Shown here: in pieces, positions 9,733 through 47,752 of the stretch
How the letters are laid out: each line of letters starts with the position of its first letter
Numbering within the stretch: the stretch's first letter is position 1
DNA from: a virus
Lineage: Duplodnaviria > Caudoviricetes
Direction: 5' to 3' (one strand)
IMG/VR virus record: IMGVR_UViG_3300021379_000808
Coordinates: 1-50,602 of that record
Length of the DNA: 50,602 nt
Program-made: the position numbers and the translations under genes
Notes under the pieces: model-generated
What the model saw: the letters and a program-made list of their open reading frames with translations, nothing else
The model's database searches: none
What the model was told of the DNA's origin: nothing

Positions 9733-10131
9733 TTATTTCTCAATTCTGAATGGGTATGTTGGAACTATTCGCGAGCTTCCATCTTGATTCATAATGACTT
9801 GCTTCGCGTTAGTAAGAACTTCTACAACCGGCGGAGGAACGGGTACAGGCTCACCCCTTCGGATGTAATAGCTTTTCCCATTAACACCAACAAAAACAGG
9901 GGCTTGATCCTTTTCGTCTTGATCTATGACGACAGTTATCCAGTCCTTCTTACGGCCCGGGTCTTCTTCCTTTTTTACTTTCTGATTTGATGGTGGCTCA
10001 ATTTCAACAGCGGCTTTAATACGGGTCCGCAAAGTTTCTGCGCTGGGGTTGCCTTTGATGACAATTCCCAATATGCGAGCCTGTTCTTTGAGCTGATCTA
10101 ACGATAGGTTGTAAAGGTTTACTTCTGACAT
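9733..10131 (-). CDS. Hypothetical protein downstream of capsid
   Basis: AGGAG RBS; N-terminal helix-extension-helix-like segment; VFVGVNG..Y.I.RG motif. Confidence 0.8.
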   Translation of the reverse strand: MSEVNLYNLSLDQLKEQARILGIVIKGNPSAETLRTRIKAAVEIEPPSNQKVKKEEDPGRKKDWITVVIDQDEKDQAPVFVGVNGKSYYIRRGEPVPVPPPVVEVLTNAKQVIMNQDGSSRIVPTYPFRIEK

Positions 10132-10165
10132 AAAAGTCTCCTGCGGCCATTAGGCGGCATAGTTT

Positions 10166-10204: not shown

Positions 10205-11206
10205 TTAGACTTCCTTAGCGGCTACTTCTAAGCGGCACATCCAAGCTTGGTTAGCGATGAATGACTTGTGGTAAGTCTTCCAGCCAACAATGCCTTTCTG
10301 GCCCAGAGGATCAGACTTGTCTACCTGACCGGGGTTGATGATGGTGGGTGAAATAGCTTCCGCACCCTTCAGAGCAACGTGGCCATAAGCGTCTTTGCCG
10401 ACGTAAACGACTGGGTATACATCAGCGTTAGTGCCAGATGTAGAAACAACGCCGTTTGTTGAGGCCGTACCGCCAGCGTCTTCGATAGAAGAAAGAACAG
10501 GAGTGAGGATGTAGCGTACATCTTCAACCTTGCCGATCTCATAAGGAAGAGCCTTCATTGATCCGTACTTTTCAGTAGGAACAAATCCAGTCAAGTCGCG
10601 GATGTCTGATTCCAAGTCAGTGTGTGCAAACGCAATGAACGCCGCGTCAACAGCTTCAGTGCCGTACTTGACAGAAGACGACAGCATAGAAGTTACCTTC
10701 TTAGCGCGTTGTGCCTTGAGCTGACGAGTAACAGCTCGCTGACGAGCAAGCGTAATTACGTTATCAACGTCAGTACGAGCAGTGTCGGTAGACTCCGCAT
10801 AGAACACGTTAGTGCCGCCTTGGAGAACACCCCACATCAAAGTCTCGATGGTTTCTGCGGCTTGCTCACCACACATCATCGCTGAATCCTTGAGTACAGG
10901 ATCTTCGGCCAAGTCATGAACAACGTCAGTGATTTCAACGATATCACCATACTGGCTCAGAGTGACTGTTACGTCTTCGTAGTTCATCTGAGTTGCAGTT
11001 GGCGTGGCGCCTTCTGTCAGTGGAGTTGTTGCTACCGCGAAAGGAATAGGTCGTCGGAACTTAACAACCTGCGCCTTGTTCTTGGGCATTGGCTTTGTCA
11101 TACCAAACTTTGAAAGACAAAGGATGGGCTCTGCGTGAGCGAGCATTTCTTTTGCCGCATACGCTTGGGTCCGCTGTGAAACGGAGGTATAAGTTGTCGT
11201 TGCCAT
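10205..11206 (-). CDS. Major capsid protein, N4-gp56-like family
   Basis: 333 aa; KFG...MPKNK..VKFRR, PLTEG.TP, QYG, EIGKVE.VRY and DPLGQ.G.VGWK motifs. Confidence 0.9.
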   Translation of the reverse strand: MATTTYTSVSQRTQAYAAKEMLAHAEPILCLSKFGMTKPMPKNKAQVVKFRRPIPFAVATTPLTEGATPTATQMNYEDVTVTLSQYGDIVEITDVVHDLAEDPVLKDSAMMCGEQAAETIETLMWGVLQGGTNVFYAESTDTARTDVDNVITLARQRAVTRQLKAQRAKKVTSMLSSSVKYGTEAVDAAFIAFAHTDLESDIRDLTGFVPTEKYGSMKALPYEIGKVEDVRYILTPVLSSIEDAGGTASTNGVVSTSGTNADVYPVVYVGKDAYGHVALKGAEAISPTIINPGQVDKSDPLGQKGIVGWKTYHKSFIANQAWMCRLEVAAKEV

Positions 11207-11355
11207 TGTAAAAGTCTCCTATTGAGTGTCTGATTGGCAAATTAAGGTATCAATCGACCGATCACCTACCCGATGAGGAAACCGTCGCTAGTGCGGCTTT
11301 CGCGGCGTTGCTAGGTAACGTCATTGTTTGGGTGTTAGTCATAAACTCAGACCCC

Positions 11356-25230: not shown

Positions 25231-25633
25231 AAGCTATTCGCCTCGCTACATCCCGGGCTCTAGCAGGTGTCTGCTCAGCCCATCTCGAATCGAGAGCTTC
25301 TGCGTGAACTCTCCCCCAGTCCTCAGCCTTGATGGCGTTAATCATCCGCTCAAAGCCAAGTACACCGTCGTAGCCCATCTGATAGGCCATTTCGATGATT
25401 GCCTCGCGTCTGGGTTGATCCAGATCCCTGAACCAATCCAGCTCCTCGAAGCGTCTTGTTAGTTGTTCTGTGTAGTCGATCAGTAGCGCCTCGGCGATGT
25501 GCTCCGGCACACCGTATCCGCCCCGCTCAATCATTGTCCCGTAGCCGATTGTCAGCTTGCCCTGACTGCATTGGTAAGCGTACCGCCTGAAGCCCTCAAA
25601 TCGCTTTAGACGGTCGATAAGACCCTGAGACAT
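25211..25633 (-). CDS. Endolysin (GH24 phage lysozyme)
   Basis: EG.R..AY.C..GKLTIGYG, MAYQMG and DSRWAEQTPARA motifs; likely start MSQGL. Confidence 0.9.
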   Translation of the reverse strand: MSQGLIDRLKRFEGFRRYAYQCSQGKLTIGYGTMIERGGYGVPEHIAEALLIDYTEQLTRRFEELDWFRDLDQPRREAIIEMAYQMGYDGVLGFERMINAIKAEDWGRVHAEALDSRWAEQTPARARDVARRIAYGWTST

Positions 25634-25646
25634 AGGGATGGACCCG

Positions 25647-25817
25647 CTAGTCGTCCTTTCGCTTACGGGCTGTTTTAGAGGCCTTATCGAATGCCTCATC
25701 CGTTGGAGCACCCTTAGAGCCCGGCTTACGCATCCGCTCCTTTGACCCTGCCGCGATACGCTTTCGCTTTGCGTGGATGTTGGCATACAGCCCCGGTCTT
25801 TCCAGTAGCCCGGGCAT
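25647..25817 (-). CDS. Small basic hypothetical phage protein
   Basis: GLYANIHAKRKRI...GAPT motif; TAATG coupling to the upstream gene. Confidence 0.75.
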   Translation of the reverse strand: MPGLLERPGLYANIHAKRKRIAAGSKERMRKPGSKGAPTDEAFDKASKTARKRKDD

Positions 25818-26014
25818 TACTTTTCGCTTACCGGCTGAGTGGTCATGAATCGCAGTACCACAATGCCTGATGCAATCGCGCAACCGATGAAGGCCTGCAC
25901 TGCCGGGTTAGCCGGGATAAAGCCCACGAAGCCCTGAAGCACTGACAGCACCGCAATCGCTACGCCGTACTGAACCGTCCGAGATTTTAGTGCCTGTTTA
26001 ACTGTCATCACCAT
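25817..26014 (-). CDS. Putative holin
   Basis: 65 aa, two hydrophobic helices, LRF.TTQPV; near the endolysin. Confidence 0.7.
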   Translation of the reverse strand: MVMTVKQALKSRTVQYGVAIAVLSVLQGFVGFIPANPAVQAFIGCAIASGIVVLRFMTTQPVSEK

Positions 26015-26295
26015 TTCACCTTATGAGACCAATACCGAGCGCTCAGCTTGCTAGGGTTAGAGTCCTGAGCATTGTGCCGGGCGTAGTAGCTTTTCCGACG
26101 CGCCTTATCCTTGGCCGTCTTTGGATTCTTGCCAGCGCCTTTGACCCCCTGTTGCCCAAAACGGATCGTCTTGACCTGATCGCCTTCCTTCGCGACCACG
26201 ACGTGTGACTTGGTTGGGTGATTGGGTGTGCGCTTTGGCTTGTTAACGCCAGACACGCCTGCGCGCTCAAGCAGACCTTTGATGTCTCTTGCCAT
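26008..26295 (-). CDS. Basic hypothetical phage protein, first late gene
   Basis: NKPKRTP.HPTKSH.V.AK.G...IRFGQQG...SARYWS..VKW; start MARD. Confidence 0.8.
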   Translation of the reverse strand: MARDIKGLLERAGVSGVNKPKRTPNHPTKSHVVVAKEGDQVKTIRFGQQGVKGAGKNPKTAKDKARRKSYYARHNAQDSNPSKLSARYWSHKVKW

Positions 26296-26306
26296 TTCCG
26301 CAACCC

Positions 26307-26333
26307 AAAAAAAAGCCCCGACTCGCGGGGCAA
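26307..26333 (-). terminator. Rho-independent terminator just upstream of the late operon (tR'-like)
   Basis: GCCCCG-CGAGT-CGGGGC followed by T8. Confidence 0.85.
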
Positions 26334-26392
26334 ACAAACTAAGAGGAGTGTTTCAAAAAAACCTGACGGGACGCTGGACGCAATTACCGCCA
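26307..26392 (-). ncRNA. Candidate terminated leader sRNA with anti-RBS seed AAACACUCCUCUUAGUUU
   Basis: Seed is complementary to RBS regions at 26714, 26971, 27513 and 34300-34311 and ends in a terminator; the 5' end is inferred. Confidence 0.55.
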
Positions 26393-26398
26393 GACCCG

Positions 26399-26427
26399 AT
26401 TGTCAACCTTTTAGGTTCTGGAATCAA
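26399..26427 (-). promoter_or_regulatory. Candidate late promoter (pR'-like)
   Basis: TTGATT-17bp-GACAAT; an overlapping TTGACA lacks a well-spaced -10. Confidence 0.4.
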
Positions 26428-26466
26428 CCGATTTAAGACCCACATAAATATTTATTTCTGAAGTGC

Positions 26467-26495
26467 TTGACACAGTAGCGCTACTCGATTACGGT
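26467..26495 (+). promoter_or_regulatory. Sigma70-type promoter of the early accessory operon
   Basis: TTGACA-17bp-TACGGT with an AT-rich upstream element. Confidence 0.7.
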
Positions 26496-26504
26496 TACAC
26501 CTAT

Positions 26505-26519
26505 CAACCAATTTGGTTG
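26505..26519. promoter_or_regulatory. Candidate repressor operator
   Basis: Palindrome CAACCA-ATT-TGGTTG just after the promoter, similar to 34342-34354. Confidence 0.5.
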
Positions 26520-26653
26520 GCTGGCTACGAGGAGCCCAGACCCAAACCCTGCGGGAGACAACCCACCAAACCGGCGACCACTGAGTCAACCAGTGAGAGA
26601 CGACACCAAACGAGCACGATGAGCACCACCACCGGAGACGGCGTGGGAACATA

Positions 26654-26705
26654 GCGTCAACACCTAATGCGAGGTGTTCTGATGATGGCCAGCAGGCCGA
26701 AACGC
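26654..26705 (+). ncRNA. Hammerhead ribozyme, type III
   Basis: GCGU-C^ stem I AACACCU/AGGUGUU, CUGAUGA-U, stem II GGCC/GGCC, GAA-ACGC; predicted cleavage after 26658. Confidence 0.85.
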
Positions 26706-26725
26706 AAAACAACGGAGTGTTACCA

Positions 26726-26911
26726 ATGCAGACCTTTGTATGCAAGGGTCGAGCGGGTAAGTGGTCCTACGGTTACCTTGCCGAGCCCGGCAAGCGAAAC
26801 GTGTGGGTGTACACCAACGGTGAGGTCACATACCGACCGCTTGGTGGAAACAACTTGATGGCCGCTTCAAGCGAAGCCACCACGTTGCACCGCAACTCGC
26901 TCGAGTCCTGA
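26726..26911 (+). CDS. Small hypothetical early protein (61 aa)
   Basis: GGAGTGTT RBS before ATG 26726. Confidence 0.65.
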   Translation: MQTFVCKGRAGKWSYGYLAEPGKRNVWVYTNGEVTYRPLGGNNLMAASSEATTLHRNSLES

Positions 26912-26982
26912 ATTAGATTCGGAGTCTGACCCACTTGGCAACAGAACGGGTCTCCCCTTTTAAAACAACTGGAGTGTTCAAT

Positions 26983-27429
26983 ATGACTACAAAAACATTG
27001 AAGCAAATCAACGCAGAACTCGCAGAGACCTCAGCCCAGCTCGAAGCTTTGGCGGATGTCCTGAGAGAAGCTAAGCAACACGTAGCTGACAAGACCCGGG
27101 AGGTCAGAGAGCTGGAGCGTTCAAGAACCGAGACGGCAGAGCGTGAACGGCGCAACTGGGTGAATCGCAACCGCTCGAAGGCCAAGCGATTAGCGGCCAA
27201 GTACGGTATCGAGATCGAGGACGAGTCGATCAGAGACTACGATGGATATGACCTGCGCCACTGGGTAGGTCAGCCAGACTGGCTTGAAGGTGACGACCCG
27301 CTCACAGATGGTCACTTCAGTCACTGCTGGAGCGACACTGTTTGGCTTGTCGAGTTTTACGCCAAGCATCACCCATCTCACCCAGATCACGAGAACCGTG
27401 AGCACAGGGTTCATAGCCCTCACTGCTAA
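26983..27429 (+). CDS. Hypothetical early protein with N-terminal coiled coil
   Basis: GGAGTGTT RBS before ATG 26983. Confidence 0.8.
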   Translation: MTTKTLKQINAELAETSAQLEALADVLREAKQHVADKTREVRELERSRTETAERERRNWVNRNRSKAKRLAAKYGIEIEDESIRDYDGYDLRHWVGQPDWLEGDDPLTDGHFSHCWSDTVWLVEFYAKHHPSHPDHENREHRVHSPHC

Positions 27430-27430
27430 A

Positions 27431-27490
27431 CCCGTCTGACGATGGCTGGAGGGATACCAGCCGAAACGCCTCCGGGCGTCACGGGAATCC
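27431..27490 (+). ncRNA. Hammerhead ribozyme, type I
   Basis: Stem I CCCGU/ACGGG, CUGACGA-U, stem II GGCUGG/CCAGCC, GAA, stem III ACGCC/GGCGU, GUC^ at 27480; loop II GGAU can pair with AUCC 27487-27490. Confidence 0.9.
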
Positions 27491-27522
27491 ACCCGACAAC
27501 ATACAAAAATTTGGAGTGTTTT

Positions 27523-28383
27523 ATGACTAAGAAAAAAGTTGATGCCTATCAGGTAATCACGGACAAAGTAATCGCGATGCTAGAGACTCACGGGTCAGGC
27601 TGGACTAAGCCTTGGTCTGACAGCCTCGCAGGATCGCCTGTAAGCCTTTCCACCGGCAACCCCTATCGAGGTATCAACCGACTGCTACTCGGCCTTGAGG
27701 GACGTTCTGATGCGCGCTGGGGCACATACAAGGCTTGGTCAGAGAAGGGCGGTCAGGTTCGTAAGGGCGAGAAGGGTACTGCGGTTATCTTCTTTAAGCC
27801 CTTAGAGATTCGAGGTGATGACGGTGAGGTCGAGAAGAAGATCCCCTTTGCCCGTATATACAATGTATTCAATGCCGAGCAAGTTGACGGTATCGAATTG
27901 ATCCAACCTGAAGAGCTGACCCCCATAGAGTTAGATCAGCGTTGCGAGGATTTCATTGCCGAGACTGCCGCGCAAATCCGATTTGGTGGTGACTCTGCGT
28001 TCTACTCCCCGGTTGTCGATTACATCGGTATGCCGAGACCAGAGGCCTTTGAGTCTACTGCCGGTTACTACGGCGTCCTACTGCACGAGCTCACTCACTG
28101 GACTGGTCACTCTACCCGGTGCGACCGCAAGATCCTCAATAGCTTTGGTAACGAGGACTATGCGTTCGAGGAGCTGGTTGCCGAGCTAGGCGCCACCTTC
28201 CTTTGTGCCGATTTAGGTATCGAAATAGAGCCCCGCGAGGATCATGCACAGTATATCGCAAGCTGGCTCAAAGCGCTACGAAACGACAAGAAATTGATCG
28301 TTAAAGCGGCCAAGCAAGCCCAGCTCGCAAGCGAGTTCTTGCACGGCCTCCAAACAGAAAATCAACTAGCAGAGGCCGCATAA
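27523..28383 (+). CDS. ardC: ArdC-like antirestriction protein (ssDNA-binding domain plus zincin metallopeptidase)
   Basis: W.KPW, YRGIN.L.L, W.TY..W...GGQVRKGEKG, VFNAEQ, HELTHWTGH and YAFEELVAE motifs; true start 27523 after the RBS. Confidence 0.92.
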   Translation: MTKKKVDAYQVITDKVIAMLETHGSGWTKPWSDSLAGSPVSLSTGNPYRGINRLLLGLEGRSDARWGTYKAWSEKGGQVRKGEKGTAVIFFKPLEIRGDDGEVEKKIPFARIYNVFNAEQVDGIELIQPEELTPIELDQRCEDFIAETAAQIRFGGDSAFYSPVVDYIGMPRPEAFESTAGYYGVLLHELTHWTGHSTRCDRKILNSFGNEDYAFEELVAELGATFLCADLGIEIEPREDHAQYIASWLKALRNDKKLIVKAAKQAQLASEFLHGLQTENQLAEAA

Positions 28384-30377: not shown

Positions 30378-30642
30378 GTCAGAAGCCGCGAGAGCCTTGG
30401 CCGGTATGAGAAAGGTCCGAGAGCTTCACTGCATTGGTTGCGGGGAATCTTTCCACGCCGTCGATACCCGGGCGAAGTATTGCTCGAATCGTTGCCGCCA
30501 GAAGATGAAATACCAGCGTAAAGTTGCCGAGTATTTTGACAAGGAGTGCGCCGTTTGCGAGACCGTTATGTTCCTCAACGATAAGCGAGTGAAGTATTGC
30601 TCGCCTCGATGCCGCTCAATAGCCGCTGTCCTTCGGAAGTGA
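30370..30642 (+). CDS. Protein with two Cys4 Zn-finger repeats
   Basis: CxxC...KYCSxRCR twice; GGAGG RBS. Confidence 0.75.
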   Translation: MSKSEAARALAGMRKVRELHCIGCGESFHAVDTRAKYCSNRCRQKMKYQRKVAEYFDKECAVCETVMFLNDKRVKYCSPRCRSIAAVLRK

Positions 30643-30942
30643 ATCAAACTCCTTCCTAAATGCCTCAATCGCCATATCCCTCGCCCTGCGGGGGATTTTT
30701 TTTGCCCTGTCGATATAGATAAGCCTCAGCGTTTTCCTTAATGCCGGATGCAGTTTGTTGACGGCGGTTCCGGTCATCTCAACAACCATATCGCGCTCAG
30801 TCATTACCCCGGTGCTTCGATAGCCGGACTGATAATCTTTGAATGTTGGTGATACCGAAGGGTAGTCTAGCTGGCTGACCTCTCCCCTCTCAGCGTCCCC
30901 CCAGTCTTTAAGCAAAGTCATTGCCGCATATTTTGGCATCAT
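30616..30942 (-). CDS. Putative Q-like late antiterminator (start uncertain)
   Basis: Last gene of the nin region; L..WG...L.YP.VSP.F pattern and sigma-region-4-like helices. Confidence 0.5.
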   Translation of the reverse strand: MMPKYAAMTLLKDWGDAERGEVSQLDYPSVSPTFKDYQSGYRSTGVMTERDMVVEMTGTAVNKLHPALRKTLRLIYIDRAKKIPRRARDMAIEAFRKEFDSLPKDSGY

Positions 30943-31129
30943 CGGTAACATACTCATGAATTGCTCTGAGCAATCGGATATTCCGGACGTTCTCAACGTA
31001 GCGTTCATCTTCTACCTCCAGATTCTGAAGCTCGAATGCAACTGCCGCGATTGCTTTCTCGATCGTGTCTGCTCTCGCATAGCGAGGAGCGGACGCCCCC
31101 TGATCTATCTCTTCTGCCTCACAGTTCAC
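30908..31129 (-). CDS. Hypothetical protein
   Basis: GTGA overlap with the upstream gene. Confidence 0.55.
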   Translation of the reverse strand: MNCEAEEIDQGASAPRYARADTIEKAIAAVAFELQNLEVEDERYVENVRNIRLLRAIHEYVTDDAKICGNDFA

Positions 31130-34293: not shown

Positions 34294-34335
34294 TTTTCAT
34301 CCTCTTAGTTTTTAAAGTTCATCCAGCAAGGGTCG

Positions 34336-38093: not shown

Positions 38094-38325
38094 ATGGCTT
38101 TATGTAACAGGCACACCTAAGACAACCTTCAGGGGATGGAAGAAGAAGCTCGTTAAAGGACAGCACTATTTCGTTAATGGTCGATCAACTTACGTTGACG
38201 CCAAGGAGATGGACAATTGGCTAAGGGCATCAGGCGCTGGAGAAACAAGTGGCAGTTACGAGCCACAGTTGACGGTAAAGCGCACACCCTCACGCTCGAC
38301 TACCCAGATACTCAAGCTGGTCTGA
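38074..38325 (+). CDS. xis: Excisionase-like protein
   Basis: Small basic wHTH-like protein (G.HY...GR.TYVD...MDNW) upstream of and overlapping int. Confidence 0.65.
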   Translation: MLIHLDKWLYVTGTPKTTFRGWKKKLVKGQHYFVNGRSTYVDAKEMDNWLRASGAGETSGSYEPQLTVKRTPSRSTTQILKLV

Positions 38326-39260
38326 GGAAGGCCGTAAAGGCTAGGAAAGTCTGGCTTGCTCAACTCAAGTCTGGCTGTGTCGAGGATGTGCCTCAGTTTG
38401 GTGTGCTTGCTCAAGAGTACCTACGCCAATCTGACCTAAAGCACTCCACGTATCACGTATACCGTAGAGCGTTAAACCAGTTTTGGATGCCGCATCTAGC
38501 TACGGTTGGCGTGGACCGCATTAAGCCGAGTGTGGTCCGCGCCATACTTAAATCCCACGATGTAACCTCAAAGACAAAACGCAATGCGCTCATACCTTTA
38601 CGCAAGGTGTTCGAGCTGGCTATCGAGGAAGACTACATCGACACTAACCCGGTAGATTCTGTGCGGGTTAGGCGCCACCAGAAGCCCCCGGTTATTCGAT
38701 TCACGCCAGAAGAAAAGGCAAAGATACTCAAGCGCCTTGATGGGGACGGCTACCTGTTCTATCTGATTGCCTTCGAGACCGGGATGAGAACCGGGGAGAT
38801 ACTGGGCCTCAAGTGGGAGGACCACACCGGGGACAATATCCATCTATCAAGATCCATTGTGCGCGGCAGGATTGGATCTCTAAAGACTTACAACGCTAGG
38901 TCAGTGTTCGTATCGCCCAAACTGCGGAAGGTGCTTACAAGTCATCCTGATCGCTTCAAGGGAGGGTTTATATTCGTCACTGCTAACGGCGATTATTGCC
39001 GAGACGATGACAGGTTCAGAAGGGCTTGGCACAAGGCATTAAAGGGAGCGCGAATAACCTATCGAAGGCCATACACTTGCAGGCATACTAGAGCATCAGA
39101 GATGCTGATGGCTGGGGTGGAGCCAGCCTTTGCGGCAAGACAGCTAGGCCATTCAATACAGATGTTCTTAACGGTATACGCAGAGTGGATAGATGGCGTT
39201 AAGGATGTACAGCAAAGAGAGATACTTAAAGCCATAGGGGGCAATGATGCGAGTAGTTAG
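38217..39260 (+). CDS. int: Tyrosine integrase
   Basis: TGMRTGE, K, YTCRHT, LGHS and VYA catalytic motifs; N-terminal arm-binding-like domain; TTG start after AGGAG. Confidence 0.92.
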   Translation: MAKGIRRWRNKWQLRATVDGKAHTLTLDYPDTQAGLRKAVKARKVWLAQLKSGCVEDVPQFGVLAQEYLRQSDLKHSTYHVYRRALNQFWMPHLATVGVDRIKPSVVRAILKSHDVTSKTKRNALIPLRKVFELAIEEDYIDTNPVDSVRVRRHQKPPVIRFTPEEKAKILKRLDGDGYLFYLIAFETGMRTGEILGLKWEDHTGDNIHLSRSIVRGRIGSLKTYNARSVFVSPKLRKVLTSHPDRFKGGFIFVTANGDYCRDDDRFRRAWHKALKGARITYRRPYTCRHTRASEMLMAGVEPAFAARQLGHSIQMFLTVYAEWIDGVKDVQQREILKAIGGNDASS

Positions 39261-39634: not shown

Positions 39635-42600
39635 TTAGCCAGCGCGGTCCTGCATGAATTCATCGTACCGCTTGTTGAAGCGATCAACGATATCGTCCTT
39701 GCTTTCCCTTAGCGCTTCGAGCTGTTGCTCTCTATCGGCAGGCGTTAGGTCGTCTCGATCCCGTATTCTCATCTCACGCTCGCGGATACGACGCAATCGC
39801 TTATAGACGTTATTGGCTTTTGGATACAGCGTTCGTATTCCATTAAAGCCTTCGTCGCTTGCCTTTCTTGCATTAGAGTCAGGCGCGTCATTGTATTCCT
39901 TGCGAGCGTTGATAATCTCCTGTCGCCTTTCGTAGAAGGTGTCGATGTCTCCGTAGTCGGACTGATCCTTACCAACAAGAACCCGAGCAAACGGCACATT
40001 AGCGATCTCCAACTGCCTGCCAGTAACGGGCCTAAATATAGAGTCGCCTGTACCTGTGGCCGTTCTCAATAAACCGCCGCCTGCGTACTCGATAATCTGC
40101 TGTAGAGTCTCTGGGCTAACGTCTGTAGAAATGCCCATAAGCTCGCCAGATCTGTACTCAGATCCGCCGCCAATAACGTCATTAAGGAACTGAGCCACCT
40201 GAACATAAGGCTCTTTGGTTGAAGGCCAGTACAAGTAAGCATCCGCCTTCTGTGCTCCGCCGGGGAAGTTTTCTGGGTAAATCTTCTCACCGAAGTAGTT
40301 AGTGTTTACTGCAAGCTCAGTGACCGGAAGCACAATGCTTGGGCTTATCGTTAGTGCCGCCTGAGCCGCCGCATTTTCCGCCCTGTGCAGACTGAACGGG
40401 GAGAACGACGTTGTGAAGCTAGACACCAAATCGCCAAGAATATTATCCCTTCTGCGCTGTGATCCTTTGAGCGCACCTTCCACCGAGTCGCCAAGATTCC
40501 AGAAGAAGTTGTAACCGTAGGGCAAGGGTAGCTTGTAGTAATCCCCGCCAGATCCGGGCTTCATAATGATGAGATTTCTTTCTCGTATGCCTGCGGGGAT
40601 CTTGTCCCAGAAAGCTTCGCCATCATCATCCTCACCACCCACTTCTCTCATTAGAGAAGCAAACCCAGCTCCGCCAGCAACAATGCCGCCAGCTATCTTC
40701 TGGGCTAGGTTTAGATTTCTCTGCACCTGAATGTTTCCTTGGCTGTTGACCTGAAGAGGGCTCAGTGTCCGCAAGAACTGAGTGGTTCCCTGAACTGCCG
40801 CGTTAAAGAACATATATAGCGAATTAACGAATGTTCCTATCTCGCCCTTGCGGTTAAAGTTCACCGTCATATTCTTGGCTAAGGACGCCGCCTGCTTGCG
40901 AGCAACGCCTGCCTTCCTAGCCTCGATATAGGCCGATAGTCTGACGCCGTTTTCTACTGCGCTGTTGTATTTCTCAACCAGCTCAGCAATCTTAACGCCA
41001 GCCTTCATCAAGTCATTCTTGGTGCCGGGGCCAGCTCTGCCTAGCTTCTTCTCTAGATCTGCGGCAATTGTGTCAACATCTGGAGAGTCAAAGTAACCAG
41101 TCTTTGCGCCGTCGTTAAGAAACTCTTGGTAGTATCGACGATACTCAGTAGCTTCTGGGTCAGAGTCGTCATTAACGGCATCTTGCTTATTGGATGATCT
41201 GATTGCGGCAATAGCCCTTGGCGTACCTGAGACAACTTTACCAGCAATCTGATTACCGTCTAACTTCCCGCCATCCATAGTGGCCTCTGCCATTAGATTC
41301 AGCGCCGCCGCCTGAATATCACGGGCGAAGTTCGTGACCACAAACTGAGGGTTGTATGAGGTATTAACAGATGCCAAGAACCGGGTCATCCCAGCAACAA
41401 CCTTGGTTACTGCGCTCAATCGCTCAGGACCAACATTCTGCATTGCATTAAGCAGTCGCTGATCCTTGACCTTGATGTAATGGACAATGCCATCCCGCTT
41501 GACTGCGTAGTATTTGTCTGACCCTGCCATATTGACCGGACCCTCTCTAACACTTCCGTTACGGAACTGCTCCTCAGTGTCCGGGTTTGCGTCAGTAAAG
41601 ACTTCCCACATATCAGGATCTGGGTTGCCCTCAACAAGATTAAGGAAGGTCTGGCCGACCTCGTTCTTCCTGTTGCGGATGGTCTTCTCTGTGAGATCCG
41701 CAATAACCTGAGATGTTGGGCTCTTCGCTTTGGATCTTCGGCCTAGTGCGCGGCGCGACTCTTTGCCTCGTATGTCAAAGCCCCTGCCTGTTCTAATTCT
41801 ATTGCCGTTAGAATCAACCTCGTCGTCAGCGAATCCCCGCAATGGGATGTAGTTTTCATACATACTCTCCCAAGAACTAACCTCCTCATCCGAGGCTAAG
41901 CCGCCAGACTTAATAAGATCTCGCGTAAGCTGAGTCATTGCGTATACTTGATTGGCAAGTTGGTTGTAGTCTGCCAGCTTCCCGGATCTCTGTACGCGCT
42001 GTATAACCTCTGCCGCTTCAGCGTTAGTCATACCTGAGCCACCGTCAGGTAGCTTGTCATTGATTGCCGCAATCTTACGGTTACGCTCTGGTGCGTGACG
42101 AGCCATCAGGTACTCGTCTAGATCGGCAACGCTAATGCCAGTCTTCTCAAGTAGCTCGACAAACGGACGAATCAGACGAACCTCTAGCTGTCGCAAGTCT
42201 TCTTCGGTCTTACCGTAAAAAGCCTCTTCCGCTAGGTAAGCGTCCTCGTCAAAGTCCAGCTTGCGCTCTTGCGTTTCCTCAATGAACTGCTGAGTGCGCT
42301 TGAGGCCGACCATTTTGTCTTGGAAGGTGCGGATGAATTTATCAGCAATAGTCTCTTCAGGCGGTCGCTTAGGGTAGATTCTCGCCGAGTCCCGCTGGAA
42401 CATTGGCAATCCTTCCTCTGTAACCTTCTGCTTAAACTCATCAGAGATAGGTGCGGCCCAGCCACGAATGCCTGCATCCTGCATGAGCTTCATTCTGAGT
42501 TTTTCTTCAGCTTGCTTTCTTGCGACCTCTACACCTTTGTCGGTGTAAATGTCCATAAAATCAATAGCAAGATAGTCGCTATTAGAAGGGAAAGTGACTG

Positions 42601-45600
42601 AGAAAGTGATCCTGTTGTTGTCGGAGTATTGGTCTCTGTATTTAATCTCTGCTTCGCCTGCGACCTTTAAAGCGTTCTCGTAAGCGGCAGTCGCATCAAG
42701 ACCCTGAACATCCACAGGGTAAGGCTTAACGCCGAGAAGCTTTCCTATCGCGCTAACGTGCTTCTTGTCATAAATCTGCTCGTAGAATCGGCCCCAGCGA
42801 TTGTTCAGCTGAGCGGCGCTTGAAATCATCAAGGCATCCTTGCCCTCCTCCACTGCGGTGATAAGCATCCGCTTGAGAGCAAGCTCCGCATAACGATCTT
42901 CAGTAAAGGGTACGTTTGGTGGAGCGCTTTGTGAATTGGCAAGCCTTCTTCTCGCGTCATCACGAGCCTTAGATTTCTTTCTGTTTTCGACCTCTAGACT
43001 TGCAAGTTCCCGCAGAAACCTATCAAGGTCTGGCTCAAGATCAGTAACCTCTTTAATGCTTCCTAGGTACGTTGCCGATGAAGAGTAGCTAATGTCCTTC
43101 CCCTGAAGCTCATCAGCAAAAGCCTGCCTAGCAATGCGTAAAAAATTATTGTAACTAGGAGTTGGATCTAAAATTCCCGGAGCATCCATTCTGCTCACCC
43201 CAAACAGATCCCCAACAAGCTTGGACACATCAGGGCTCAATAGCAATGCTTTTGCATTCTCCGCTACTGTGTCAATTCTCATTTGCGTACTGGCCATATC
43301 CAAGTCGATTTCATTAAGGGCTTTTTCGTCCCTATCAACCCTAGCCTGATCTCTTGGCCCTCCAGCTCTGCGGATATCACTCTGCCAATCAGACTGCATC
43401 TCCTCGATCATGAGGACATTGCCTAGCGCATTACGTCTATCGGTAGCGAGGACATTAAAAAGTGCGTTTTGCCCAAAGTGGCTTGAGTAGTATTGGCCCC
43501 ACTTGTTGTCAATGGTTGTAACAAACTCCCGGTACTGATCCCAATTCTCTTCTTTGACATCACTCAAGTAGTCTAGAAACTGGACATCATCTCCAGTGGC
43601 TACATACCCATACTCGTTAAGGTAGTTTTGAACCTGAACCTTGGCTTCGTCTAGGTCATAAACAATATCAAAATCACCCGTTTCTCCTCTCTCTGGGGTT
43701 ATTTGAATGCGCCAGCCCATATCATCGCTTCCTGAAATTTGGGCGTATCTGATCCCATCAACATCGGTAAGCAGATCAACGGTGGTGTATGGATCTGAGT
43801 TTATGTAGTCCTCTCGCGCAGTAACCCAAGCAACTTCGTCAATTTCGTTTTCAAACTCTGCCGCCAATTCAGGGTAAACTGTTTTTGCTCCAAGCTCCTT
43901 CACAAAAGAATAAACACCAGCCTCAGCGAACGACCCCCTGCTTAGGTATTCTTCTTGGGCTCTCGCGGTCACATCCTCATCGAATACGCCGCTTGATAAA
44001 AAGTCATAAACCTTTTGCTGATTTTCAAAAATAAAGTTGCTAATTACATCGCCAGCTCGACCCGCAAAGTCGCCCTGCTTTATCTCGTACTGGATGTCAT
44101 CCCAGATATACTCGTAGTATTCCTCGCTGTCTTGTATTTCAGGCTCACTGTACTCTAGCCCATCTTCGCTAATCTCAAATCCAGCCTGAGTTGTGGACTC
44201 AACGTCCTCCTCTAACTGTGGCGCCTCATCCCGCAAGAACTCAATCACCTCATCGCGAGTAAAACGACGGCTGGGGTCTTCGGTTAGGAACTGCTCAATC
44301 TCAGTGTACTGAGCCTCATCTTTTTTGATGCCCTTCCCTTTGAGGAAAGAAAAGATCTGGTCTCCACGAACGCTGGCGTCTGGGTTTTTCTTTGAAGGCT
44401 TAAAGATTTTATCGCCTTGGTCAATGATGACCTGCTCAGTGTTGGAGTACAGCTTTAGAGGGGTTTGCTTTGCTCTGGTGCGCTCGCCCATAATAAATGA
44501 TGGACGACCCTCTTGAGCGTTAGTCTGGTTGTTTAAAAAATTGTTCCGAGCTCTTTTTGCTACTAACGAAATATCACTTGCTCGCATACGCGATAGCTTC
44601 AAGAATGTGTTGTTGCGGAACCACTCGCGGATAGCACCAATAGCCTCGCGGGTACGTTGCTGTAACTTCTTAGAACCCTGCTGTCCTGTGTAAGCAAGCA
44701 TCTCGTTCACAAGAACTGCGTTGCGAGTATCTTGGTCTAAGCTGGAACCTTTCATTCCGCTAATATAAGGGCGCACATTAGCCTCAATGCCAAGCTCTCT
44801 AGCCAGCTTATCAAAGCCTTTCTGTCCACCCATTGCGGTCCACATACGATTCAGCGCTTTGTTGACGCCCTGATCTCGGTACATATCCATCACGCCGCCG
44901 TGAGTGCCTTCGTGTAGAAGCGCCTCTTCAACCTGCGATTCAGTCGCGAGCTTACCCTTGACGAGGTATACTGTCCCTCTATGGTAAACCGCGCTAATGT
45001 CCGCTCCATCGGAGCCCTGATCTCTTGCCGCTTGCTGGATTTCTTCCGGAAGCTCCGCAAAAGAAGAGCGCACGTCTACTCGATTACGGGCATCCCCGTC
45101 CTGACCGACGACCCTATCGAGGACAGAATTGAATTGTTCATCGTTGATGACGGGTCTTCGAGTGGCTCCTCTCTGGAATGAAGTGTCTAAACCTCCGTCT
45201 TCCTGAATGCCTCCAATCTCTGCATCACTACCTGTAGCTTGTCTCTCGCCGAAAGCTTCAGCTCCGGTCTGATCTCCAATGGGCGGCTGTAAAGTTGCTC
45301 TTCCTGATCCCTCGTTAAACGATTCAACATCTCGCTCTTCGGATTCGACAAGGCTTGCTTCTTGGGTTGGCTCTCTTTGCGATCCATAGCTGGCATCAAA
45401 AGACTCCTGATAATATTGGTCAACGAATGCTATTTCGTCGTCAGTTAATGGGCCGAACTCATCCTGAAGCTCAATAAGAGTTCGTGATATTTCTTCCTGC
45501 TCAACTTCTAAGCTAGGAATATCCGCTCTGCTATCGCCAACGAATACGCGATCATTAGACTGGATGGCCGTTGTGAAAAGATCCAAGACTTCGTTGGCTG

Positions 45601-47752
45601 TTGGGCGCTCTGGGAAGAAGCCATTTTCCGCAAGCTTCTCTCCCATATCATCAAAGCTCAGGCCATTCCTTCTTACGGGTCTTGCCCGTCCTGAGTAGCC
45701 CCTAAATGATTCTGGGTCTATACCCTGAGTAATCGCCTCGTCAGTTTGTATGCCGCCAAGTCGAGCGATTGCCGTTAGAACGTCAGTGTCTTGTGCGCTA
45801 GTTGATCGTGGGGGCACTTCCTGAGCTTGCTCAATGCGATCCTCAATCTCGATTAAGCGCGACTCCATCTCTGGTGCAGATGCCGCCTCATATGATTCTC
45901 GGAGTCCCTGCGTTGTGTCGCGAATCTCAGGCTCGGGCTGTGCCGCTTGATTAGTTTGGTCAATAAAGTTATTAACCGACTCAGGGTTTGCCTGTCTACG
46001 CTCGCGTCTGAATCCAGCAAGCGCAAAGCGCTCTGTGTTTGGATCTTGGAATACTTCCCAGTTGAACCCCGGCTCCGCCTTCTGACGGCTCTTCATTGCC
46101 GCGTCAGCGCCCTTTCTGGTAGCAAAGCCATCACCCCTAGATCCTTGGTAAATCGTGTCTGGAGCGCCTTCTATGGGCTCCTGATAGATGACGTTATCTT
46201 GGGTTAGAAGTGGGCGACGTTGAGTCCTAACTACTGGACCTTGCTCGACGTATGAGGCATCGAAATTAACGTCTGTGTCTGCGGTTATGACCGGCCCTTC
46301 CAAGGGCTCACTTGGATCTCGAACAGGAGGCTGACGCAAGAACTCCTGAGACATCTCAGTGCCGACAATCGCGTTAGCTCGCTCAATGAGTCTGGCTCGC
46401 AAGCCCTCATCTGCTGTGCCTTGTGCGCGGTCATATATAGCTTGTGCGTTGCGGAGGCGAGTGGCTCGCTCTGGCTGGTTTACCCTATCGGCGAAAAGTA
46501 TCTCTTCTGTTAAGTCAAAGGGTAACTGGGGAACTTCTTGCTGGGGCTGGAAAGGCGCTGGCGTAACAATCGGTTGGAAGGGTGTTGGCTGTAGCGTGTC
46601 CTGATCGAACTGATTAGCAAGCTCCGGTAGCTGTATTGTGGAAGGAGCTGGCTCCTCGATATTCATACGCTCGCGAAGAGCCGAAAGGTCTGTATTAGCA
46701 AAGCCTCCAGATGCGGCAGTCGCGGCATCGAGATTGTCGCCGCCGTTGGCTACTGCATCTGCTCTAGCGGCTTCTGCGTTTTCGCTGGCCTCCTGCATTG
46801 GAGAGGAGAGCCCAGCAACACCACCGCCCAGTATGCCTCCACCAAGCGCGCCAAGACCCGCCGCCTGACCGACGCCCTCAAAAGTTTCCCGCGTTGGGTC
46901 AATAGGCTGTACGGCAATGTTTCCTGCAATCTGACCGCCGCCTTCTTCAAGCGTCTCTTGCAGTGACTCGCTACCGGCGCCCTTCAGAGCGCGAGAGAAA
47001 AATCCATCGCCTTTAACGCCGCCTCTGGCTAGGCTTCTTTCGATAGTGTTCGGCAAAACACCAGCAGTAACGCCAGATATAACTCCAGATATGCTGGCCG
47101 CTTTGCGCGAGGCATCAAGGGCGATCTCATTCTTTGCTTCTTCTCTACCCACTTGGTCTGATAAAGCAATGAAGTCTGCGTTTTGATTCCAGATATCATC
47201 CGGCAATGCCTTGAGGTCGTCGAACACACTCCCGCCAACATCGCCAGCTTGCAGTGCGCCGCCAGTAACCACACCGGCTCCAGCGCCAACTCTTGCAGAT
47301 TTCGTTAGAAGAGATGCCCCCTTCGCAACAGCACCTCCGGGTACTGCCATTGGAGCCTGCTCAAGAACAAAGTTACCAAGTAGATCAAGATCGCTAATAG
47401 TTCCCCAAACAGCCTCGCCTGCCTTTGCAAGCTGACCATCAGCAGAGTCAATGCGAGCTTGAAGATCGGCCTGCTTCTGCAAAAGCTCGTCAGTCTTAAA
47501 TTGCTCGTAAAACTCACGTCCACGCTCCGCTTGGCGAGTGGCCATATTGTCCATATCGCCAGATACAAGACCATACAGACTACCCACAGAACCAAGGAGA
47601 TTGTTTGCGCCTATACCGAATGATGCAAAAATATTGCTTTTAAAGGGCTCGGGCTCAGGCTGAGCTTCAAATTCGTCAAAGAACCCGCCATAAGGGCTGT
47701 TGCTAGATGGTCCGTCGAACTCATCAAAAAAACCGCCGTACTTGGCCATCAA
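39635..47752 (-). CDS. Giant polyvalent (ejected) protein with HEXXH metallopeptidase and LPD38-like C-terminus
   Basis: 2705 aa; LLHEGTHGG, IEEMQSDW, AKNMTVNFNRKG...LYMFFNAAVQG and KLPLPYG motifs. Confidence 0.85.
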   Translation of the reverse strand: MMAKYGGFFDEFDGPSSNSPYGGFFDEFEAQPEPEPFKSNIFASFGIGANNLLGSVGSLYGLVSGDMDNMATRQAERGREFYEQFKTDELLQKQADLQARIDSADGQLAKAGEAVWGTISDLDLLGNFVLEQAPMAVPGGAVAKGASLLTKSARVGAGAGVVTGGALQAGDVGGSVFDDLKALPDDIWNQNADFIALSDQVGREEAKNEIALDASRKAASISGVISGVTAGVLPNTIERSLARGGVKGDGFFSRALKGAGSESLQETLEEGGGQIAGNIAVQPIDPTRETFEGVGQAAGLGALGGGILGGGVAGLSSPMQEASENAEAARADAVANGGDNLDAATAASGGFANTDLSALRERMNIEEPAPSTIQLPELANQFDQDTLQPTPFQPIVTPAPFQPQQEVPQLPFDLTEEILFADRVNQPERATRLRNAQAIYDRAQGTADEGLRARLIERANAIVGTEMSQEFLRQPPVRDPSEPLEGPVITADTDVNFDASYVEQGPVVRTQRRPLLTQDNVIYQEPIEGAPDTIYQGSRGDGFATRKGADAAMKSRQKAEPGFNWEVFQDPNTERFALAGFRRERRQANPESVNNFIDQTNQAAQPEPEIRDTTQGLRESYEAASAPEMESRLIEIEDRIEQAQEVPPRSTSAQDTDVLTAIARLGGIQTDEAITQGIDPESFRGYSGRARPVRRNGLSFDDMGEKLAENGFFPERPTANEVLDLFTTAIQSNDRVFVGDSRADIPSLEVEQEEISRTLIELQDEFGPLTDDEIAFVDQYYQESFDASYGSQREPTQEASLVESEERDVESFNEGSGRATLQPPIGDQTGAEAFGERQATGSDAEIGGIQEDGGLDTSFQRGATRRPVINDEQFNSVLDRVVGQDGDARNRVDVRSSFAELPEEIQQAARDQGSDGADISAVYHRGTVYLVKGKLATESQVEEALLHEGTHGGVMDMYRDQGVNKALNRMWTAMGGQKGFDKLARELGIEANVRPYISGMKGSSLDQDTRNAVLVNEMLAYTGQQGSKKLQQRTREAIGAIREWFRNNTFLKLSRMRASDISLVAKRARNNFLNNQTNAQEGRPSFIMGERTRAKQTPLKLYSNTEQVIIDQGDKIFKPSKKNPDASVRGDQIFSFLKGKGIKKDEAQYTEIEQFLTEDPSRRFTRDEVIEFLRDEAPQLEEDVESTTQAGFEISEDGLEYSEPEIQDSEEYYEYIWDDIQYEIKQGDFAGRAGDVISNFIFENQQKVYDFLSSGVFDEDVTARAQEEYLSRGSFAEAGVYSFVKELGAKTVYPELAAEFENEIDEVAWVTAREDYINSDPYTTVDLLTDVDGIRYAQISGSDDMGWRIQITPERGETGDFDIVYDLDEAKVQVQNYLNEYGYVATGDDVQFLDYLSDVKEENWDQYREFVTTIDNKWGQYYSSHFGQNALFNVLATDRRNALGNVLMIEEMQSDWQSDIRRAGGPRDQARVDRDEKALNEIDLDMASTQMRIDTVAENAKALLLSPDVSKLVGDLFGVSRMDAPGILDPTPSYNNFLRIARQAFADELQGKDISYSSSATYLGSIKEVTDLEPDLDRFLRELASLEVENRKKSKARDDARRRLANSQSAPPNVPFTEDRYAELALKRMLITAVEEGKDALMISSAAQLNNRWGRFYEQIYDKKHVSAIGKLLGVKPYPVDVQGLDATAAYENALKVAGEAEIKYRDQYSDNNRITFSVTFPSNSDYLAIDFMDIYTDKGVEVARKQAEEKLRMKLMQDAGIRGWAAPISDEFKQKVTEEGLPMFQRDSARIYPKRPPEETIADKFIRTFQDKMVGLKRTQQFIEETQERKLDFDEDAYLAEEAFYGKTEEDLRQLEVRLIRPFVELLEKTGISVADLDEYLMARHAPERNRKIAAINDKLPDGGSGMTNAEAAEVIQRVQRSGKLADYNQLANQVYAMTQLTRDLIKSGGLASDEEVSSWESMYENYIPLRGFADDEVDSNGNRIRTGRGFDIRGKESRRALGRRSKAKSPTSQVIADLTEKTIRNRKNEVGQTFLNLVEGNPDPDMWEVFTDANPDTEEQFRNGSVREGPVNMAGSDKYYAVKRDGIVHYIKVKDQRLLNAMQNVGPERLSAVTKVVAGMTRFLASVNTSYNPQFVVTNFARDIQAAALNLMAEATMDGGKLDGNQIAGKVVSGTPRAIAAIRSSNKQDAVNDDSDPEATEYRRYYQEFLNDGAKTGYFDSPDVDTIAADLEKKLGRAGPGTKNDLMKAGVKIAELVEKYNSAVENGVRLSAYIEARKAGVARKQAASLAKNMTVNFNRKGEIGTFVNSLYMFFNAAVQGTTQFLRTLSPLQVNSQGNIQVQRNLNLAQKIAGGIVAGGAGFASLMREVGGEDDDGEAFWDKIPAGIRERNLIIMKPGSGGDYYKLPLPYGYNFFWNLGDSVEGALKGSQRRRDNILGDLVSSFTTSFSPFSLHRAENAAAQAALTISPSIVLPVTELAVNTNYFGEKIYPENFPGGAQKADAYLYWPSTKEPYVQVAQFLNDVIGGGSEYRSGELMGISTDVSPETLQQIIEYAGGGLLRTATGTGDSIFRPVTGRQLEIANVPFARVLVGKDQSDYGDIDTFYERRQEIINARKEYNDAPDSNARKASDEGFNGIRTLYPKANNVYKRLRRIREREMRIRDRDDLTPADREQQLEALRESKDDIVDRFNKRYDEFMQDRAG

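Follow-up and report, generated by a model that had tools for sequence, protein, structure and literature searches.

The window analysed here is the whole of the virus record IMGVR_UViG_3300021379_000808 (50,602 bases), which by its gene content is a temperate tailed phage with a large terminase nearest to those of Pseudoalteromonas and Vibrio podophages (54-55% identity). A divergent region of 430 base pairs separates the early operon on the plus strand, which opens with genes for a 61-residue protein, a 148-residue protein and an ArdC-like anti-restriction protein, from the late block on the minus strand. This region contains the element under study, referred to here as the late leader, in which a candidate minus-strand promoter is followed by a 5' hairpin, a single-stranded stretch and an intrinsic terminator directly before the first late gene. 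The single-stranded stretch is complementary to the ribosome-binding sites of the first early genes, and both the unit and this complementarity are conserved in three phage lineages. A sequence-only reading of the window had proposed that a short terminated RNA from positions 26307-26392, like the one made from the lambdoid pR' promoter, may silence the translation of both early operons. The coordinates that it gave are all correct, and those of the features discussed below are collected in Table 1.

The candidate promoter consists of a -35-like and a -10-like hexamer, which are separated by exactly 17 nucleotides (nt) in the window and in its relatives L089 and L091/L093, though the sequence of the spacer varies. 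The RNA start is placed near 26392-26394 by this spacing only, and a hairpin opening with CUGGCG begins approximately 7 nt past GACAAT. The predicted RNA then passes through a U7 tract and the stretch GAAACACUCCUCUUAGUUUGUUU into the terminator, with AAACACUCCUCUUAGUUUGUUU as the sequence immediately upstream of the latter. As the sequence-only reading had described, this terminator is strong and directly follows the copy of the ribosome site, with a stem-loop at 26331-26315 and a U8 tail; it is the sole terminator-like site in 25500-27600 and among the few strong ones in the genome. A predicted RNA of approximately 88 nt (approximately 111 nt in L091), ending at approximately 26307, is supported by this layout and agrees with the span 26307-26392 of the sequence-only reading. 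The whole element reads, in order, hairpin, U7, (G)AAACACUCCU, a few variable bases, the variable-loop terminator, U8, GG(G)UUGCG and ATG. Three other readings of its parts were set aside: a sigma-54 promoter at CTGGCG..AATTGC, where the spacing is 2 nt too short for the consensus; a boxA/nut site at CUCUUA, which is not conserved in L089 or L091; and a first terminator tail formed by U7, which is unlikely in view of the 6 nt that separate U7 from the hairpin in L091.

Relatives of the unit were reached through the 65-residue protein of the second late gene, which led to L089 (a contig of 42.7 kilobases), L091, L092 and L093. The window, L089 and the L091/L092/L093 group constitute the three lineages, and a comparison of four sequences yields a mean column identity of 76%. 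The -35 and -10 hexamers, the length of the spacer, the 5' hairpin, U7, AACACTCCT, the terminator stems and U8 are kept in all three lineages, whereas variation affects the spacer sequence, the interior of the hairpin, the bases beyond the core and the loop of the terminator. Within the hairpin, L091 carries an additional 30 nt, but the hairpin is still closed, by CUGGC/GCCAG, and the inner block AATTGCGTC is conserved. The core AACACUCCU is invariant, and the bases that follow it are lineage-specific (CUUAGUUUGUUU, CUAGUUUGAGAUU and UUUAGU). A near-identical strain is represented by contigs X1-X3, from three runs of one study, which differ from the window at 12 positions between 26042 and 26705. 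None of the 10 differences listed falls in 26326-26407; they lie in the terminator loop (26322 and 26325, the loop also differing in L089 and L091), in the promoter spacer (26408), in the AT-rich tract upstream of the -35 hexamer (26437-26460) and, still further upstream, at 26485 and 26586, and the terminator stems and U8 are unchanged. In silico, the short pR'-like unit of the sequence-only reading is thus retained from promoter to terminator in three lineages. As a separate observation, a metagenome contig of the L091 type with 50,743 bases (L260 and L263) has two copies of the leader, which are distinguished by a single base (C or U) in a bulge of the 5' hairpin and match the L091 and L093 variants; the duplication may stem from a circular assembly with redundant ends or from the mixing of strains.

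The octamer GGAGTGTT links the leader to the early operon. In the window it occurs four times, always on the plus strand, at 26345, 26714, 26971 and 27513 (1.26 copies expected; at least four in 3 of 100 shuffles). The copy at 26345 lies opposite the leader, and the other three are located 6-8 nt before the ATGs 26726, 26983 and 27523, so that the complementarity to three early ribosome sites stands as originally described. The genomes of the three lineages contain 4, 3 and 3 copies, all 10 of them on the strand of the early genes and located either in the leader or at the ribosome site of one of the first two to three early genes, whereas a reversed control pattern occurs 0, 0 and 1 times. 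The early genes themselves vary by lineage (61 residues, 72 residues, another of 61 residues and 123 residues), yet the site is retained. The longest exact complement within a genome is 9 nt in the window, 11 nt in L089 and 11 nt in L091. Additionally, the core is predicted to be open, with opening energies of 1.97, 1.93 and 1.24 kcal/mol in the window, L089 and L091, respectively.

Table 1. Positions of the late leader, its proposed targets and the surrounding genes in the window
Feature	Position	Strand	Description
-35-like hexamer TTGATT	26422..26427	minus	TTGATT kept in L089; TTGAAA in L091/L093
-10-like hexamer GACAAT	26399..26404	minus	identical in window, L089, L091 and L093
5' hairpin of predicted RNA	26362..26394	minus	predicted fold, closed by CUGGCGG/CCGUCAG
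U7 tract	26355..26361	minus	between 5' hairpin and seed; invariant in 4/4 sequences
Single-stranded stretch GAAACACUCCUCUUAGUUUGUUU	26332..26354	minus	core AACACUCCU at 26352-26344; 12-mer at 26347-26336
Intrinsic terminator	26307..26331	minus	GCCCCG-CGAGU-CGGGGC (26331-26315; 6 G-C pairs, 5-nt loop) and U8 (26314-26307)
First late gene	26008..26295	minus	95 residues, phrog_7595; ATG 26295, no Shine-Dalgarno sequence
Lysis/structural block	26295 down to 2658	minus	unbroken
Early operon	26726 to ~30642	plus	genes for 61-residue, 148-residue and ArdC-like anti-restriction proteins
GGAGTGTT ribosome site, early gene 1	26714..26721	plus	61 residues, ATG 26726
GGAGTGTT ribosome site, early gene 2	26971..26978	plus	148 residues, ATG 26983; best duplex of 58 start regions, -18.4 kcal/mol
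GGAGTGTTT ribosome site, ArdC-like gene	27513..27521	plus	ATG 27523; 9-nt exact complement to leader
AAACUAAGAGGA ribosome site, zinc-ribbon (primase-type) gene	34300..34311	minus	125 residues; 12-nt leader complement, this genome only
Replication operon		minus	divergent, adjoins repressor-like gene; zinc-ribbon primase-type 125-residue protein, O-like initiator, DnaB-like helicase, PDDEXK nuclease, NinG-like protein
Repressor-like gene	34445		111 residues
Integrase	38217-39257

Between the U8 of the terminator and the ATG of the first late gene there are only 11 bases (26306-26296), in which no second promoter fits. The whole lysis/structural operon must therefore be transcribed through the terminator, which probably gates it in the manner of lambda tR'. 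The order of the late genes (95-residue protein, 65-residue protein, lysozyme-type protein, SbcD-like exonuclease, then virion and packaging genes) places the lysis genes directly downstream of the unit, as in a lambdoid PR'-tR' late leader. The 65-residue protein contains two hydrophobic stretches and is presumably holin-like, and the third gene is of the lysozyme/endolysin type (phrog_7, 8.6e-17). Elsewhere in the genome, the gene at 39638-47752 on the minus strand encodes a product of 2705 residues, and its last 900 residues belong by their match (7.6e-229) to phrog_616, whose members are giant phage proteins with no known function.

Searches of the six frames of the genome with the Q families PF06530, PF03589 and PF06323 returned no match at E <= 10. 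Behind the NinG-like gene, in the position that Q occupies in lambda, lies a gene of 130 residues (113 as called) at 30619-31008 on the minus strand. The protein has no Pfam or PHROG match and no sequence match in the PDB below E = 0.78, and none of its four homologues carries a Pfam domain. Its predicted structure is helical and well modelled outside residues 31-49 (mean predicted local distance difference test score 76.7), with no fold match in the PDB at E <= 0.001. A strong plus-strand terminator (30676-30696; a 9-base-pair stem and T7) closes the early operon within the 3' part of the convergent minus-strand gene at 30616-31008. The sequence-only reading had also suggested that the leader RNA possibly replaces Cro; Pfam scans of 20 open reading frame translations found no helix-turn-helix, which is weak evidence that a Cro-like protein is absent, because profile searches often miss small proteins such as Cro-like proteins and antiterminators. 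No Rfam family matched the genome at gathering scores, and a scan of 26200-27600 at E <= 1 gave one weak plus-strand match, in which the hairpin scored 20 bits with the asX2 model, whose threshold is 70.

To place the complementarity against chance, shuffles of the 31-nt single-stranded stretch were compared with 58 start regions. An exact complement of 12 nt was obtained from 0.25% of the full shuffles and from 0.75% of those in which CUCCU was retained, and at least four start regions with a match of at least 8 nt arise in 1.6% and 8%, respectively; the three early sites count as one event, because one motif is common to all three. The proposed targets rank high in duplex energy among the 58 start regions, with the genes for the 148-residue protein, ArdC and the primase-type protein in places 1-3 and that for the 61-residue protein in place 6. 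The energies themselves are no better than those of shuffles, a point that is taken up below.

It is also conceivable that no discrete RNA is made, the hexamers being inactive, the terminator serving to shield the late genes from stray transcription out of the early region and the complementarity being coincidental. With a match to 8 of 12 consensus positions, the promoter goes unreported by the scan, and Shine-Dalgarno-like sequences match each other easily, with 74% of the CUCCU-keeping shuffles having at least one match of 8 nt. However, the hexamers and their exact spacing of 17 nt are conserved despite the varying spacer, the late operon needs some promoter upstream of the terminator, and every one of the 10 octamer copies is found at the leader or at an early start region, which together make this explanation unlikely.

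The longest single match of the leader is to the replication operon. The 12-mer AAACTAAGAGGA occurs exactly at 26336-26347 on the plus strand and at 34311-34300 on the minus strand, where it forms part of the ribosome site of the first replication gene, and the perfect 12-nt complement claimed in the sequence-only reading is thus exact in the window. With at most one mismatch, AAACTAAGAGGA has 2 matches (0.24 expected; at least 2 in 4 of 100 shuffles). In L089, the target is kept (AACTAAGAGGA, locus L169), but the leader lacks one U, which reduces the pairing to 6 and 5 nt around a bulge; in L091, the orthologous gene has the unrelated site CTCGGGGTGAT, with no pairing. The components of the match are common in this genome: AAACTAAG occurs four times, with the genes at 17624 and 33916 each carrying one copy in a genuine start region, and ACTAA is present in 6 of the 58 start regions, where 1.08 are expected. 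A long match to another start region may be expected because the leader copy is assembled from elements that are typical of start regions, and its 12-nt match to the replication gene most likely came about only as a consequence of this ribosome-site-like sequence. The proposed action on both early operons accordingly divides in two, in that complementarity of the core to the first early genes extends over three lineages and the pairing with the replication gene is not kept.

A distinct explanation for the repetition of the early site is provided by the history of the early genes. Contigs X1-X3 join 26705 directly to 26961 and lack the 61-residue gene, and L093 lacks one 61-residue gene of L091 with a junction exactly at CAACGGAGTGTT, the shared start-region repeat. 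Cassettes are gained and lost by recombination at this repeat, which comprises an A/C-rich tract and GGAGTGTT; because the shared module is the cassette junction, the sameness of the early sites has a non-regulatory explanation. Shared start regions are also not limited to the early operon, since the structural genes at 9733-10131 and 10205-11206 have the common module AGGAGACTTTT at 10132-10142 and 11209-11219 on the minus strand. In distant relatives of the ArdC operon, another shared site, GGAGTC(A/G)A, is found, often after a CUGAUGAG...CGAAAC motif; a covariation check with the site AGGAGTCRA in these relatives found no orphan copy and no such leader. Hammerhead-like cores (CUGAUGA...GAAAC) lie before early start regions in the window (26654-26705 and 27431-27490) and in the distant ArdC-operon relatives L081, L086 and L087, and Rfam reports no hammerhead at gathering scores in the genome or at E <= 1 in 26200-27600.

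The leader might thus act as a gate only, holding back the late operon until an antitermination or read-through signal arrives, with the RNA as a by-product that has no targets in trans and with the conserved block as a leftover of cassette recombination or as a cis site for binding or pausing. The 11-nt gap that separates the terminator from the first late gene, too short to hold a second promoter, is as expected for a gate. The open stretch is the reverse complement of a full ribosome-landing module, with every part of a start region (the A/C-rich tract, AAACTAAG, AGGAG and TGTTT), and AAACTAAG and ACTAA recur at other start regions of the genome; cassettes have been exchanged at shared start regions in two independent cases, the duplex energies do not exceed those of shuffles, and covariation was not seen. 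The cassette history does not cover the conserved leader copy, which lies upstream of the early promoter within the opposing unit and not where a deleted early cassette leaves its scar. Additionally, the 9-nt core is invariant in three lineages while the adjoining bases differ in each, and no other orphan copy was found in the three genomes or in the distant ArdC-operon relatives searched with AGGAGTCRA. A gate without targets is the main alternative in light of these results, but we regard it as somewhat doubtful.

The distribution of the unit was examined with several anchors. A near DNA search of deposited phages found no relatives, and a distant search found only the conserved 95-residue gene. 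With this gene as the anchor, 80 loci were kept, 76 of which had an upstream stretch (the other 4 having no ATG), and the leader was present in none of the 76; it was likewise present in none of 17 further loci with a homologue of the 95-residue protein. The protein itself (phrog_7595) is widespread, with a relative encoded in 599 of 600 candidate stretches from IMG/VR; the best 80 are 69-94% identical, and their gene neighbourhoods are quite different and include those of relatives of cyanophages and of HMO-2011-type phages. The 61-residue early protein has no relative in IMG/VR, and relatives of the 148-residue protein have only that gene and ArdC in common with the window, with one marginal match in the genome-contig collection. 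An exact 19-mer of the seed had no matches. A pattern of seed and stem gave 88 matches, 3 of which are the element, in contigs already in the set, and the rest chance. A pattern of stem, U8 and gene start gave 9 matches in metagenomes, 2 of them the element and both from one L091-type contig, and 4 in IMG/VR, all in the known set; the same 4 were obtained with a pattern of the promoter and hairpin block.

Several of these results weigh against an action of the leader RNA on the early genes. The promoter is weak, matching 8-9 of 12 consensus positions across the lineages without being called by the consensus scan. A search of public sequencing runs listed no RNA data set, and the four runs that were compared consist of contigs. 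The best observed duplex energy is reached by 155 of 250 full shuffles and by 216 of 250 CUCCU-keeping shuffles. The covariation of seed and targets that had been put forward as a check was not found; core and targets are invariant in the three lineages and never vary together, and matches between genomes (8-11 nt) are about as long as those within genomes (9-11 nt). The early ribosome sites double as junctions for the gain and loss of cassettes, the pairing with the replication gene is lost in relatives, and only three lineages carry the unit in the collections searched.

The plus-strand copy at 26345 could alternatively be the ribosome site of a mini-gene of 33-44 codons that runs from 26363 to 26461 and starts with CTG (TTG in L091). 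No lineage of the three has a stop in this frame, the window and L091 differ in net length by multiples of three (30 nt and 9 nt), and TTG replaces CTG at the same place. However, as the sequence-only reading had stated, no ATG, GTG or TTG follows the copy at the distance of a ribosome site; the nearest candidate, the CTG at 26363, is 14 nt past GGAG, and the start is 13-14 nt away across the lineages compared with 6-8 nt at the three genuine sites. The upstream sequence shows no promoter on the plus strand, the 33 codons show 6 amino-acid changes and 2 silent changes between the window and L089, and the DNA blocks that are conserved are those of the minus-strand promoter and hairpin. A mini-gene is the least probable of the explanations considered here.

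The complementarity might also work in the opposite direction, in which case abundant early mRNAs would bind the nascent leader by base pairing just 5' of the terminator stem, lower termination and so activate the late operon with no need for a Q-type protein. The distance from the end of the seed to the stem is 6-14 nt (6 nt in L091), the three Pfam Q families have no match at E <= 10, and the tract before early site 1 in the window (CGCAAAACAAC) resembles the complement of the spacer and of the first two stem bases. The pairing in L091 does not extend into the stem, however, and small antiterminator proteins are easily missed by profile searches. We know of no precedent for an RNA that relieves an intrinsic terminator in trans in a phage, which counts further against this scheme, and we consider it very improbable. 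Still less probable, and highly speculative, is a two-way RNA timer that combines both directions, in which the leader and the early mRNAs would stand in for Cro-like and Q-like proteins. Early on, the short RNA or the 5' end of late transcripts would dampen translation of the anti-defence cassette, and the accumulating early mRNAs would then pair with the nascent leader beside the terminator, causing read-through into the lysis and structural genes.

In layout, the unit resembles the source of StxS, the short PR'-tR' RNA of Stx phages, and that of lambda 6S RNA, in that a promoter, here a candidate one, lies just before the lysis and late genes with a strong intrinsic terminator within approximately 100 nt, and the terminated by-product carries a U-tail (70-90 nt for the StxS/6S type, approximately 88 nt predicted here). 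According to PMC7547250, StxS binds Hfq and acts in trans, including in the repression of a phage-borne gene. The action in trans of a PR'-tR' by-product is therefore not new as an idea, having been published for StxS (PMC7547250). By-product RNAs of this kind have so far been documented mainly for StxS, which acts on a toxin gene and on host rpoS. Unlike StxS and 6S, the present unit is accompanied by no recognisable Q-type antiterminator, it is divergent from and not downstream of the early operon, and the leader has no sequence similarity to them and no Rfam match. The proposed targets also differ, being the early start regions of the same phage, in contrast to stx1 or rpoS for StxS.

Pairing with ribosome-binding regions is likewise known from other phage RNAs. 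In the c4 RNA of P1 and P7, exposed sequences pair in trans with the ribosome-binding region of a phage mRNA and block its translation, and sar RNA of P22 and OOP RNA of lambda are short RNAs that lower the expression of early regulators by base pairing, as described in the review PMC12197685. However, c4 controls the antirepressor in its own operon and decides immunity specificity, whereas the leader RNA would derive from the late operon and have its targets in the divergent one. The sar and OOP RNAs are cis-antisense, transcribed opposite the target and fully complementary to it, whereas the leader is encoded 370-1170 nt from its proposed early targets (approximately 8 kilobases from the replication gene), with complements of 8-12 nt. 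The predicted leader RNA begins with a 5' stem-loop, continues through a U-rich tract and an open seed and finishes in a Rho-independent terminator whose U tail is long, a layout like that of Hfq-dependent trans-acting small RNAs of Gram-negative bacteria. The U-rich site and the U-tailed terminator are present, with U7 and U8 invariant in four sequences, and the seed is conserved and, by prediction, accessible. Additionally, A-rich (ARN/ACA-like) tracts precede the Shine-Dalgarno sequence in the proposed targets, and tracts of this type are described in PMC4104026 and PMC3879156.

On the basis of the sequence comparisons, our tentative preference, at rather under an even chance, is that the early start regions are bound through base pairing by the terminated late-leader RNA and are translated less as a result. 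The weak sigma-70-type promoter would start the RNA near 26392-26394, and the strong intrinsic terminator would stop most transcripts at approximately 26307, yielding the RNA of approximately 88 nt and holding back the late operon. The RNA would then use AACACUCCU, with 0-3 bases on its flanks, to pair with the GGAGUGUU ribosome sites of the two or three genes that open the divergent early anti-defence operon and encode the 61-residue, 148-residue and ArdC-like proteins. Translation of these genes would fall in consequence, in a manner close to the effect of StxS, c4 or sar RNA on their targets. Activity of the promoter, accumulation of the RNA and its action in trans are all inferred from the layout, and the last of these is plausible.

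If this is true, the by-product of a terminator-gated late promoter would feed back on the early genes of the same phage. The late-leader origin would be as in StxS and the action on ribosome sites as in c4, and the novelty would lie in the choice of targets, namely early cassette genes of the very phage that encodes the RNA. The shared ribosome-site module of the early cassettes, with their hammerhead-like flanks, would then serve as a common handle for one small RNA, and a regulatory RNA gene would have arisen by copying the start region of its target into the leader of the opposing unit. The unit would additionally represent a case of late-gene gating in a marine phage group without a recognisable Q protein.

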